IMG/VR virus record: IMGVR_UViG_2630968800_000004
Direction: 5' to 3' (one strand)
DNA from: a virus
Lineage: Duplodnaviria > Heunggongvirae > Uroviricota > Caudoviricetes
Length of the DNA: 44,113 nucleotides
Position numbers and translations under genes: made by a program. Under the pieces are notes generated by a model, which made no database searches, was not told the DNA's origin, and saw only the letters and a list, made by a program, of their open reading frames with translations. Shown here piece after piece: positions 5,829 through 17,320 of this stretch. Numbering within the stretch: the stretch's first letter is position 1; each line of letters opens with the position of its first letter.

Positions 5829-6140
5829 TTAAATTTAGCACTGTTAAAAATTTAATCCTTAACCGGAGGGATTTCTGCACCCTCAAATCATCAGGAGACC
5901 GCCCGAAAGGGCGGTAATGAATGGTTACATTATTTAGAAAAAAATATCCGCGAAAGAGTAGAACAACAGAATTCCTGTTTCTCATTCTGTTTATCGTGTT
6001 GATGACACCGATATCCCCGCAAATTTTTGTCTGGATAATCGGAAAAATAATTGAGCCAGTTATTGAATTGTATAACGACGTGGTATGGGCGTCATTCAAC
6101 ACACTGCACAATAAAATTAATCCGTATAAGGAAAGCTGAT

Positions 6141-6506
6141 ATGGCACTGACGAAAAAACAACGTGCAGAACTGCGCATGAAGTTCGGTGGTCGCTGCGCT
6201 TATTGCGGCTGCGAACTTGGCGAAAAGTGGCATGCAGACCATGTAAAACCGGTCATTCGTTTTGATGGAAATATGCTTCACCAGGAACGTGACGATATAT
6301 CCAACATGGTACCAGAATGCCACCCATGCAATCTGCACAAGCATTGCAGTAGCCTGGAAGATTATCGACGAATTATCAGTGATGGTCGTCGTGAATTCCT
6401 TGCGTCCGGGAAAGGCAAAGCGCTGGTTCGTATGGGATTGGTTGAAATGAAATCTGACCCGGTTGTGTTCTGGTTTGAAAAATATCAAGAAGGGGCTACG
6501 GCATGA
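6141..6506 (+). CDS. HNH endonuclease
   Basis: CAYCGC...HADHVKP...N...CHPCNLHK motif; ATG at 6141 with AAGGAAAG RBS. Confidence 0.7.
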   Translation: MALTKKQRAELRMKFGGRCAYCGCELGEKWHADHVKPVIRFDGNMLHQERDDISNMVPECHPCNLHKHCSSLEDYRRIISDGRREFLASGKGKALVRMGLVEMKSDPVVFWFEKYQEGATA

Positions 6507-13212: not shown

Positions 13213-13289
13213 GGCCCTTTAGCTCAGTTGGTCAGAGCGAGCGACTCATAATCGCCAGGTCGCTGGTTCAAGTCCAGCAAGGGCCACCA
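13213..13289 (+). tRNA. tRNA with CAU anticodon, Ile2 (lysidine-type, ileX/ileZ-like) or Met
   Basis: Manual cloverleaf: acceptor GGCCCTT/AAGGGCC, anticodon loop CTCATAA, T-loop GGTTCAAGTCC, 3' CCA. Confidence 0.7.
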
Positions 13290-13290
13290 A

Positions 13291-13367
13291 CCACCACTAG
13301 CTCATCCGGATAGAGCATCAACCTTCTAAGTTGACGGTGCGAGGTTCGAGTCCTCGGTGGTGGGCCA
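13291..13367 (+). tRNA. tRNA-Arg (UCU)
   Basis: Acceptor CCACCAC/GTGGTGG, anticodon loop CTTCTAA, T-loop GGTTCGAGTCC, 3' GCCA. Confidence 0.7.
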
Positions 13368-13369
13368 GC

Positions 13370-13445
<76 letters not shown>

Positions 13446-13448
13446 TAT

Positions 13449-13523
<75 letters not shown>

Positions 13524-15242: not shown

Positions 15243-15330
15243 AGGAGACCATAGTCTAGGATGACACTTACTACAGACCTGTGTGGTCATGTTTTTGACT
15301 CATAGTTTTCTCTACTTGTCAAGGGATAAT

Positions 15331-15353
15331 TAATACGACTCACTATAGGGAGA
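15331..15353 (+). promoter_or_regulatory. Exact phage T7 RNA polymerase promoter consensus (TAATACGACTCACTATAGGGAGA), copy 1
   Basis: 23/23 match to the T7 class III promoter -17 to +6; predicted +1 G at 15348. Confidence 0.85.
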
Positions 15354-15450
15354 AGGACACAAAAAGTTTTCTCTTCTAGGATGACACTTACTACAGACCT
15401 GTGCGGTCATGTTTTTGACTCATAGTTTTCTCTGCTTGTCAAGGGGTAAT

Positions 15451-15473
15451 TAATACGACTCACTATAGGGAGA
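15451..15473 (+). promoter_or_regulatory. Exact phage T7 RNA polymerase promoter consensus, copy 2
   Basis: 23/23 match; predicted +1 at 15468. Confidence 0.85.
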
Positions 15474-15570
15474 AGGGACACAAAAAGTTTTCTCTTCTAG
15501 GATGACACTTACTACAGACCTGTGTGGTCATGTTTTTGACTCATGGTTTTCTCTACTTGTCAAGGATAAT

Positions 15571-15593
15571 TAATACGACTCACTATAGGGAGA
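15571..15593 (+). promoter_or_regulatory. Exact phage T7 RNA polymerase promoter consensus, copy 3
   Basis: 23/23 match; predicted +1 at 15588. Confidence 0.85.
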
Positions 15594-15779
15594 AGGGACA
15601 CAAAAAGTTTTCTCTTCTAGGACAACTAACCGTAACTTATCGCATCCTTTCAGGGGCGGGATGACCAATTACAGACACCAAGCGTTCTACTTAAAGTGAA
15701 TGCTTCCTGTGTGCTCTGGGTCAGTCGATAAGTGAATAGCAATAAGACACAATCATCTTAATTATGGTCTCTAGTCCCT

Positions 15780-15960
15780 ACAGGGGCTTAACTTAAAGTT
15801 AACTTAAAGACACAATTAAAGATTAACTTATAGTATTACTTAAAGTTAACTTAAAGACACAATTAGAGATTAACTTTAAGTATTAAATAAAAGATTTAAT
15901 TAAAGACCAATTAAAGATTAACTCTAAGGGAATACCTTAAGGGGTGATGATATTTATAAT
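15780..15960 (+). repeat. AT-rich iteron block with two ~50-bp direct repeats built on TTAAAG cores
   Basis: AACTTAAAGTTAACTTAAAGACACAATTAAAGATTAACTT occurs twice (about 15796 and 15846) plus further TTAAAG motifs. Confidence 0.6.
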
Positions 15961-16062
15961 AATCAATCACCAAACCTATAGGTCTTCTCTTGAAGTGGCA
16001 CACTGAATTTGGCCACCTGAACAGAGGTGATATGCTCACCTCAGAACAACACAGGTGCTCCA

Positions 16063-17231
<1,169 letters not shown>

Positions 17232-17239
17232 CCACTTCA

Positions 17240-17320
17240 GTTGAAATTGCTGAGCTGACAGGCAAGGAGCACCGAAATGTCCTTCGTGATATTCGTAAGA
17301 TGCTCGAAGAACTTAACGCG
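17240..17320 (+). other. 81-bp fragment encoding a Rha-like phage regulatory protein N-terminus, trapped between IS911 and IS1
   Basis: Translates to VEIAELTGKEHRNVLRDIRKMLEELNA, similar to the Rha-like gene at 35521-35856. Confidence 0.35.

Follow-up and report, generated by a model that had tools for sequence, protein, structure and literature searches.

An AT-rich TAAAG array resembling T7-group origin DNA in a truncated integrative element at tRNA-Gly

A short AT-rich repeat block, located in a 44,113-nucleotide stretch of DNA that is referred to here as the window, stands about an even chance, judged from its sequence, of being the AT-rich half of a T7-type transcription-primed origin in an element that serves as a satellite of T7-group phages or as a defense island resembling one. 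Several origin-type features are present, namely a promoter directed at the block, relatedness to the A/T clusters of T7-group phages and a primase site. A T7-type origin is also the simplest mechanism because the promoters are of the helper type, no replication gene is present and the array is nearest to T7 origin stretches. The anatomy of the block, its similarity to phage DNA, its conservation across a family of elements and its mobile-element context were all observed directly.

Genomic setting of the repeat block

The block is located in a small integrative element that is inserted at a tRNA-Gly gene and truncated, and not in a T7-group phage genome or terminal region (Table 1). The tRNA gene belongs to a four-tRNA cluster among prophage genes, and the element is embedded in an IS-riddled bacterial or prophage region. 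Homology to the glyU-linked loci of E. coli begins within the 3' end of the tRNA, and the integrase is 86-89% identical to the integrases of four of these relatives. The sequence-only reading of this DNA had implied a T7-phage context, which does not hold. A T7-like phage or prophage genome was rejected as the setting since a comparison of the region with 50,697 phage records returned nothing past promoter-sized matches and the IS911 insertion, the region is chromosomal in E. coli and no T7 genes lie nearby. A plasmid origin was likewise rejected, as the plasmid collection contains no match to the region.

The IS911 copy, whose transposase frames are the open reading frames (ORFs) at 16027-16365 and 16392-17231, interrupts the element right after the block, and the genes that the element carries downstream of the block are missing from the window. 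Because of this interruption, the window copy is a dead remnant that is unable to act within a complete element. The 99.6%-identical locus L011 has no IS911 and runs on into the element's leader and first gene.

Table 1. Features of the truncated element and its borders in the window
Feature	Position	Strand	Evidence and remarks
tRNA-Gly(UCC), last of a Met-Arg-Thr-Gly tRNA cluster	13449..13523	+	ARAGORN; 3' end at about 13504-13523, GATTCCCGCTGCCCGCTCCA, is the attL core
Tyrosine site-specific integrase, 534 aa	13638..15242	+	Pfam Phage_integrase 2e-17; PHROG integrase 2e-44
Three tandem 120-bp promoter units	15255..15622	+	Tandem Repeats Finder (TRF) period 120, score 694; all aimed at the block
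Element-specific conserved spacer module	15623..15787	+	Conserved in E. coli, Klebsiella, Rouxiella and Edaphovirga loci
AT-rich TAAAG-unit array (the block)	15788..15941	+	TRF core 15788-15923; last units, 15891-15941, are the part closest to T7-group origin DNA
Hairpin with AT-rich loop, GGTGATGAT...ATCAATCACC, closing the block	15943..15971	+	Same position in relatives
IS911 insertion truncating the element	15991..17240	+	100% match to IS911 from about 15990; IS1 and IS600 next

Anatomy of the array

Tandem Repeats Finder describes the core of the block as an array of period 47 with 2.9 copies, 86% matches and a score of 200, and it also reports sub-periods of 11 and 23. A repeat search resolves two 47-nt copies, at 15791-15837 and 15838-15884, that are 94% identical. 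On direct reading, 13 consecutive units of 11-13 nt make up the block, each terminating in TAAAG, TTAAG or TATAG, with a unit spacing of about 11.7 bp. The hexamer TTAAAG occurs seven times on the plus strand and once as its reverse complement, whereas composition-matched shuffles average 0.15 occurrences and never exceed 3. The sequence-only reading had placed two copies of a core of about 40 bp at about 15796 and 15846; the two copies are present, but they begin at 15790 and 15837, the second with 2 mismatches in 40 positions. Its descriptions of the block as strongly AT-rich and free of ORFs are both borne out. A+T reaches 82% across the 136-nt array, and the G+C fraction falls to 0.255 in 15800-15999 from about 0.40-0.50 in the flanking DNA, which makes the block a local A+T peak. 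No ORF of at least 20 aa is found within 15753-15910 on either strand. A small ORF was accordingly rejected as the role of the block, and a 20-aa frame that runs across the closing hairpin is not conserved in Proteus or Lonsdalea.

Sites of the T7 primase type, (G/T)2GTC, number three on the minus strand of the block and none on the plus strand (P = 0.0012 by mononucleotide shuffling). They consist of two GTGTC and one TGGTC, in the same orientation as the GACCC motif of the T7 origin AT cluster. Locus L011 has one 47-bp copy fewer than the window and a single promoter unit. Both tandem arrays, the promoter units and the 47-bp block, are therefore polymorphic, and among the relatives the number of promoter units ranges from 1 to 3.

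Promoters, spacer and hairpins around the block

T7 promoters upstream of the block had been proposed from the sequence and are confirmed as three exact consensus 23-mers on the plus strand (15331-15353, 15451-15473 and 15571-15593; 0 expected by chance), with start sites at 15348, 15468 and 15588. These promoters are 200-440 bp upstream of the block. The best match of the promoter unit in T7, which reaches beyond the consensus, is to phiOR at 39209-39250. The A/T cluster begins 200 bp past the last start site, not the 190 bp first given for this downstream distance, and lies behind the conserved spacer; the spacing in T7 is about 10-90 bp. This conserved interval of roughly 190-200 bp between promoters and block counts against the origin reading.

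Within the spacer module, a hairpin is formed at 15643-15663 (CATCC-loop-GGATG), and a second, G-rich motif, ACAGGGGC, adjoins the block at 15780-15787. The stems of the spacer hairpin in Proteus and Buttiauxella appear, from a reading by eye without statistics, to have changed in sequence with their complementarity kept. The module has no similarity to T7 or K11 above shuffled controls, and a phage origin of the spacer was rejected on this basis. The hairpin that closes the block has a counterpart in T7 and K11, where GGTGAT...ATCACC or GTGATGAT...ATCACC comes after the AT-rich stretch downstream of phiOR. The similarity of these hairpins is marginally over shuffles, with a score of 18 against a maximum of 16 for T7 and of 14 against 14 for K11.

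Several other candidate functions for the region were considered and rejected. An Rfam search of the region yields no family and a single sub-threshold chance match, and the counts of sigma-70 promoters and intrinsic terminators in the region are not above those of shuffles. Arm sites for the integrase were rejected as the role of the block, which is more than 2 kb from either att site; the CTGTAACC repeats near the att sites are better candidates.

Similarity to T7-group origin DNA

T7 replication starts at phi1.1A/B, and phiOR and phi6.5 can serve as secondary origins; every T7 origin requires a promoter that depends on T7 RNA polymerase (PMC8373140). Part of the primary origin is an A/T-rich cluster that contains a GGGTC primase site (PMC12839067). 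The sequence-only reading had suggested an alignment with known phage origins, and the best T7 and K11 matches of the block do fall in AT-rich DNA downstream of phi1.1A/B, phiOL, phi6.5 and phiOR. The best local matches in the whole T7 genome are at 5935-6005 (the primary-origin A/T region), at 414-477 (right of phiOL) and in the hairpin region after phiOR. The top score is reached by 6 of 300 dinucleotide shuffles over the T7 genome and by 1 of 300 for the origin region.

A windowed Smith-Waterman scan of T7 gives scores of 26 at 5901-6150 (phi1.1B), 23 at 401-650 (phiOL), 21 at 151-400 and 17-18 at phiOR, where the genome-wide maxima of composition-matched shuffled queries average 14.3 and are at most 16. 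The top four windows of K11 are located just downstream of phiOR (24), phi1.05 (20), phiOL (20) and phi6.5 (19), with a shuffle maximum of 15. When the block of the Klebsiella element is used instead, the same four K11 regions are recovered, of which only phiOL (22) and phi1.05 (16) exceed the shuffle maximum of 15. The Pectobacterium block was also compared with its cognate phage and gives a score within shuffles, so that cognate similarity was rejected for this block; the observation counts against the origin reading.

A permissive search of a 2.3-Gb phage collection returns three match groups below E = 0.1, all in phage genomes of 37.5-41 kb. The matches with E = 1e-4 to 2e-3 are to the IME15 group at 6218-6267 (E = 1e-4) and to Ebrios at 6210-6259 (E = 2e-3). 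Ebrios is a Teseptimavirus, and its matched stretch has two tandem promoters on one side, themselves located after the RNA polymerase gene, and gene 1.1 on the other, which is where the primary origin lies; this position was confirmed for Ebrios alone. The Smith-Waterman score of the block is 29 against the Ebrios origin region (1000 shuffles: 10.1 +/- 1.6, maximum 18) and 26 against the T7 origin (shuffles: 10.7 +/- 1.7, maximum 19). The transcription-activated origin that the sequence-only reading had put forward is supported at the sequence level by this relatedness to origin AT clusters. Its term 'iteron', taken to mean binding sites for a Rep protein, is not supported, as searches of the element proteins detected no member of a Rep-type, primase or helicase family, and the block is not an iteron-Rep origin.

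A family of related elements

Of 5,426 complete E. coli genomes, 98 match the region in a near search and 201 in a distant search, and the matches overlap a site-specific integrase gene among the matches listed. At four intact E. coli loci, the integrase follows a tRNA-Gly gene (glyU), and 20-23-bp direct repeats of the tRNA 3' end bound a discrete unit of 4.2-6.4 kb that is located just before the ETT2 secretion island. Across the intact relatives, direct repeats of the tRNA-Gly 3' end of 17-23 bp are found at both ends. The window element is in a different target tRNA (UCC, in the four-tRNA cluster) from the glyU loci, which suggests that the element is truly mobile.

A family scan based on the integrase, with one genome per species, identifies 19 loci in Klebsiella, Lonsdalea, Rouxiella, Pectobacterium, Enterobacter, Citrobacter, Buttiauxella, Shimwellia, Proteus, Serratia, Edaphovirga and Morganella, most of them inserted at tRNA-Gly(CCC). 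Elements for which both att repeats are captured measure 6160, 6288, 6327, 6385, 6403, 6435 and 6447 bp, and one E. coli locus measures 6396 bp. No excised circle or attP junction was found in the viral and metagenome collections, an observation that counts against the origin reading. Logan contigs of 6.5-6.6 kb were considered as circles and rejected, as they turn out to be integrated copies that either break off at the att repeats or are joined to a different island.

Nearly all loci have T7-group-type promoters on the plus strand, often as two clusters, which in many loci are about 0.7 and 1.2 kb past the integrase stop codon. The specificity region of the promoters varies from locus to locus, and in two cases it is matched to phages of the host genus (a K11 type in Klebsiella and a local type in Pectobacterium). 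The element of K. pneumoniae ATCC 13883 and that of an E. coli relative share AATTAGGGCACACTATAGGGAGA, which agrees with a K11 promoter over 21 nt, and also have a T7 consensus promoter. The promoter of the Proteus element is AATTAACCCACACTATAGGGAGAC. That of the Pectobacterium element is TATTAACGACTCACTACTAGAAGAGAC, and Pectobacterium phage P15 has a promoter identical to its 23-nt core, TAACGACTCACTACTAGAAGAGA. Over its first 197 bp, the non-coding region of the Pectobacterium element shares 84% identity (E = 2e-51) with the phiOR intergenic region of local T7-like phages, which is flanked by the terminase gene and gene 19.5.

A promoter-like site precedes the 120 bp richest in A+T (73-85%) in about 14 of 21 loci from several genera, by 150-360 bp in most, and a hairpin with an AT-rich loop comes after this stretch in the same loci; the sequences themselves are diverged. 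The family arrays differ in sequence and in number of units, and the array of Lonsdalea is a run of the 9-bp GACCTTAAG. At least one primase site is present on the minus strand in 9 of 11 family blocks. One subfamily, consisting of Citrobacter, Buttiauxella, Shimwellia and one Enterobacter, has a weak block with an A+T content of 59-68%, which counts against the origin reading.

Gene content of full-length elements

The canonical order of a full-length element is integrase, cargo slot, non-coding region, a DNA-binding protein of the KilA-N, Rha or Bro-N type, a DUF6971 protein, a protein of 330-400 aa and attR. The non-coding region itself is arranged as promoters, conserved spacer, AT-rich block, hairpin and more promoters. 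The cargo gene of one E. coli locus is PD-T7-4 (PADLOC, 8e-99), and full-length copies often encode this anti-T7 defense gene, since renamed RAZR (PMC13017515). The paper that reported the discovery of PD-T7-4 states that the gene 'often overlaps an integrase gene' (PMC9519451). Promoters for phage polymerases or a T7-type origin are not mentioned in either of these two papers.

The last gene of the canonical order is represented by a 375-aa protein that has no match among Pfam and PDB sequences and was identified by fold comparison alone. Its AlphaFold model has modest confidence (pLDDT 60.6, pTM 0.60). Comparison of the modeled fold gives scores of 9.9 and 9.6 for encapsulins, 9.4 for T4 gp24, 8.9 for the HK97 prohead and 8.3 for the head protein of the capsid-forming island EcCI2. 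Foldseek returns 87 matches with E <= 1e-3 in a viral structure library, mostly to capsid or head proteins among the matches listed. As modeled, the protein is HK97-fold and capsid-like. The 4.3-kb versions of the element in E. coli do not carry this gene.

Searches of the element proteins with Pfam, PHROGs and PADLOC detected no replication initiator, Rep, primase, primase-type replication protein, helicase, terminase, portal, protease or AlpA regulator. The general features of a satellite that are present are an integrase, att repeats that bound elements of 4.2-6.4 kb and just one structural-type gene. The promoters that match K11 in Klebsiella and phage P15 in Pectobacterium hint, indirectly, at induction by a helper phage. 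Since no initiator was detected, the gap fits a protein-free, helper-driven origin.

Comparison with known systems

The arrangement in the element resembles the primary origin of T7, in which phi1.1A and phi1.1B precede the A/T cluster, in that tandem T7 promoters lead into ORF-free, A/T-rich units of 9-13 nt ending in TTAAG or TAAAG. The two sequences also align with scores well above those of shuffles, and the primase site is on the same strand (PMC12839067). Unlike the T7 origin, the block is part of a bacterial integrative element, its array is tandemly duplicated and has about three times the length, it lies 200 bp from the promoter behind an element-specific spacer and no gene 1.1 comes after it. 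The block also matches DNA downstream of phiOL, phi6.5 and phiOR in K11 and of phiOL and phiOR in T7, and in this it is like the secondary T7 origins and their K11 counterparts, with the K11 sites taken as origins by inference from T7. The resemblance to secondary origins is one of motifs and short stretches and not of long homology, with the 197-bp phiOR copy in Pectobacterium as the exception.

Phagemids engineered from T7 combine an ori, a pac site and a terminal repeat, a design that reportedly goes back to Chung and Hinkle in 1990, to whom the T7 pac determinants are also said to be due. Plasmids with these sequences are replicated, packaged and transduced by T7 (PMC13236587). The element, like these phagemids, is a small DNA that in the proposed reading would rely wholly on T7 polymerases and would be concatemeric and packageable. 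It differs from them in being natural and chromosomally integrated and in carrying an integrase and a capsid-like gene of its own as well as promoters for several phage polymerases, and neither a terminal repeat nor a pac site was identified in it.

Among known satellites, PICMIs, which depend on virulent Vibrio phages, are nearest overall. PICMIs are integrative elements of 4-6 kb with few genes and defense cargo (PMC10803314), and these properties are shared by the element, for which dependence on a virulent helper is likewise proposed. PICMIs integrate next to fis, encode a core of three proteins that serve excision and replication, are chiefly regulated by AlpA and have no capsid gene (PMC10803314); the fis site, the three-protein core and AlpA were not found in the element. 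The abstract and outline of their description make no mention of phage-polymerase promoters or a T7-type origin. The cf-PICIs share a capsid-like gene with the element, but they exceed 10 kb and carry portal, protease, terminase and connector genes, AlpA and a primase, in contrast to the single structural gene and missing initiator of the element. Because the AlpA and primase core and the structural modules are absent, the element belongs to neither the PICMI nor the cf-PICI family. A further parallel is PLE, which has its own RepA initiator and an iteron origin. The element, like PLE, would exploit the replication machinery of a virulent phage.

Alternative explanations

The phage regions that match the block are also mRNA leaders, and its resemblance to them could therefore reflect an RNA-level or packaging-related function. 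A packaging or concatemer-processing signal, in which the block, the phiOR-like promoters and the GGTGAT hairpin mimic a T7-group junction so that the helper terminase cuts and packages concatemers of the element, is unlikely, and it could be compatible with an origin role in the same block. The T7 terminal repeat and the adjacent short-repeat array share the grammar of 12-13-nt units ending in TAAAG, the T7 window at 151-400 scores above the shuffle maximum of 16, the promoter unit is closest to phiOR, the Pectobacterium element carries the 84%-identical copy of a phage phiOR intergenic region and the order of AT-rich stretch and GGTGAT hairpin is that found downstream of phiOR in T7 and K11. 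The sizes of the elements are uniform, and T7 phagemids require a pac site and a terminal repeat besides an origin (PMC13236587). The strongest matches are nevertheless to the AT cluster of the primary origin rather than to the terminal repeat, no terminal-repeat-like segment of 150-250 bp was recognized in the element, the class II pause signal of the T7 junction, ATCTGTT, is absent from the element's non-coding region and the hairpin similarity is marginal. An RNA-level role is less probable than a packaging signal; here the block would be part of a leader or non-coding RNA made by the phage polymerase, with UUAAAG units and hairpins serving stability, processing, translation enhancement or titration of a factor. 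Transcription from the upstream promoters necessarily runs through the block, the 403-nt transcript folds more favorably than shuffled sequences (z = -5.2), the motif is asymmetric between strands (7 to 1) and the homologous phage stretches are the 5' leaders of genes 1.1, 6.5 and 19.5. No ORF follows the block, however; a second promoter cluster and a leader of roughly 240-520 nt come before the first gene, Rfam gives no match, and the leaders of the most highly expressed genes of T7 (phi10 and phi9) are not among the matches of the block. The number of units also varies freely between near-identical strains, and a DNA function based on composition or on the array therefore fits better than a defined RNA structure.

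Ranked between these two readings, and improbable as well, is a neutral relic, that is, a hypervariable minisatellite derived from captured phage DNA that has no present function. Such a relic would agree with the polymorphic copy number of the block array and of the neighboring tandem repeats, with the position of the window copy in a decayed element and with the weak-block subfamily, which implies that the block is not indispensable. What argues for present function is that an AT-rich TAAAG-type array occupies the same position in E. coli, Klebsiella, Rouxiella, Lonsdalea, Pectobacterium and Proteus even though the arrays are unalignable, and that minus-strand primase sites are kept in most of the blocks (9/11). 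The least probable of the explanations weighed is that the helically phased units of about 12 bp are protein-binding iterons, recognized by an element protein of the KilA-N, Rha or Bro-N type or by H-NS and used for replication control or silencing of the locus. The thirteen phased units at their regular spacing of about 11.7 bp and the DNA-binding domain of the first downstream gene product fit this proposal. It is opposed by the fact that the first gene is non-orthologous across variants (KilA-N, Rha or Bro-N) and the motif is unchanged, by the presence of the same motif in T7 and K11, which do not have such proteins, and by the lack of an encoded Rep-type initiator.

Proposed mechanism and implications

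For the T7-type origin, we infer each functional step as follows. Upon infection by a T7-like phage, the phage RNA polymerase would fire from the outward-facing promoters of the element, through the conserved spacer and into the easily melted TAAAG array. By analogy with phi1.1A/B, phiOR and phi6.5 of T7, the transcript would serve the phage DNA polymerase as a primer, and the helicase-primase would load at the array. The phage replisome could then amplify the element, which would need no initiator of its own. Amplification would raise the dose of the downstream genes, which in full-length copies encode the DNA-binding protein, the DUF6971 protein and the HK97-fold capsid-like protein, and it would generate concatemers that are possibly packaged.

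Extended to the whole family, the proposal is more tentative and falls somewhat short of an even chance. The elements may constitute an undescribed group of Enterobacterales satellites, minimal in size (about 6.3 kb), whose helpers are virulent T7-like phages and which sense the helper with arrays of polymerase promoters, replicate from a protein-free T7-type origin that includes the block, encode their own HK97-fold capsid-like protein and carry anti-T7 cargo such as RAZR. T7 is the textbook virulent phage. In a full-text search of the non-subscription literature, neither phage-polymerase promoters nor a T7-type origin turned up as described for this island, and no report of a natural satellite of T7 was found. 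Interest is high for the element family and lower for the truncated copy in the window.

If the proposal is correct, the chromosomes of E. coli and Klebsiella carry a mobile element that uses phage promoters as an infection sensor and the initiator-free design of a phage origin as its replicon. The element would provide a very small and tractable model of satellite-helper conflict in the best-understood phage system, and it would give a mobile-element context to the anti-T7 gene RAZR (PD-T7-4), which is known beside an integrase. Perfect promoters for T7, K11 and related polymerases in wild bacterial genomes would bear on T7-based expression and on phage therapy, and the element would be a source of natural parts for phage-dependent amplification and delivery of DNA.

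Integration site and element length

The window element is integrated at the last tRNA gene (Gly-TCC) of a compact tRNA cluster rather than at the chromosomal glyU gene. At one related locus, a Logan contig (L034, 1-470), the sequence before the att core is not a tRNA but the right end of another island, an arrangement that suggests tandem occupancy of one attachment site. Elsewhere in the window, repeated ORFs of 272 aa and 167 aa are numerous; they resemble IS transposase frames and are read as IS600-type and IS1-type, and IS911 is the only window IS with database confirmation. Within a long minus-strand ORF (38680-40395) lies a 60-bp tandem repeat at window 39841-40053 (3.5 copies, 75% matches).

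Element length, as delimited by the att repeats of eight related loci (L005, L012, L015, L018-L021 and L026), is near-constant at 6160-6447 bp in six genera. This uniformity may point to a limit on size, with packaging as one candidate: six copies of the element amount to about 37-39 kb, near the size of a T7-like genome. It could equally be caused by conserved gene content.

Non-coding features and phage-like sequence

The coordinates of the main features are collected in the table below. The stem of the spacer hairpin, when read by eye, is changed in Proteus (TTTCC/GGAAA) and Buttiauxella (TCTCC/GGAGA) yet remains complementary. The hairpin has no Rfam match and no similarity to T7 or K11; one possibility is that it stabilises an R-loop or a primer. 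The non-coding DNA of the element also carries short tandem arrays composed of GATGACCATAGGC (about 13 copies), GGTCTCTCTATAG-like repeats and CCCTGTATGGC repeats, all of which differ in copy number from strain to strain. Their style recalls the short repeats of T7 terminal regions.

In the Pectobacterium element, the phiOR intergenic region found in local T7-like phages recurs as a copy, hairpins included: the segment L017 8740-8935 is 84% identical to positions 38865-39058 of phage ON995367. Judged from this sequence match, the copy is direct evidence that the element and a helper-type phage exchanged sequence, or that one mimics the other.

Features of the element family (L numbers denote loci of related elements; L001 is E. 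coli FT130; L011 is 99.6% identical to the window locus and lacks IS911)
Feature	Location	Remarks
tRNA cluster Met-CAT, Arg-TCT, Thr-TGT, Gly-TCC	window 13213-13523	four tRNAs, compact; amid prophage-like genes
Conserved hairpin CATCC-TTTCAGGGGC-GGGATG	window 15643-15663	equivalents in L012, L019, L020, L026
Second copy of the hairpin's G-rich loop motif	window 15776-15787	immediately 5' of the AT-rich block
Other short tandem arrays	L001 15055-15215, 15895-15925; L011 4030-4110, 4130-4165	non-coding DNA of the element
T7-group-type promoters	L005 8793-9365; L012 9263-9836	also L013, L015, L017, L019, L020, L026
PD-T7-4/RAZR	L005 8152-8784	directly after integrase; match 8e-99
Cargo-slot gene	L012 8624-9256	also L014, L019, L034, L036; homologous or DUF4145-type

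Defence cargo and promoter types

RAZR lies directly 3' of the integrase in the E. coli locus L005, and a known anti-T7 defence gene is therefore carried in the cargo slot of the element family. The slot is occupied by a different gene in L015.

T7-group-type promoters are present in relatives from other genera, with a specificity region that varies by locus. K11-type and T7-type promoters occur together in K. pneumoniae and in one E. coli element, the Proteus element has the type AATTAACCCACACTATAGGGAGAC, and the promoter of the Pectobacterium element is that of the local phage. In E. coli FT130, the second of the promoter-like sites (L001 16024-16056), AATCAATACGACTTACTAATAGGAGACACACTC, is closest to T7 phi1.1A; its core is interrupted by an insertion and the site is probably weak or dead, unlike the well-formed second promoter of other element variants. 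A single element often has several promoter types adjoining one another, and the mixed promoter sets of the family look like a multi-phage infection sensor.
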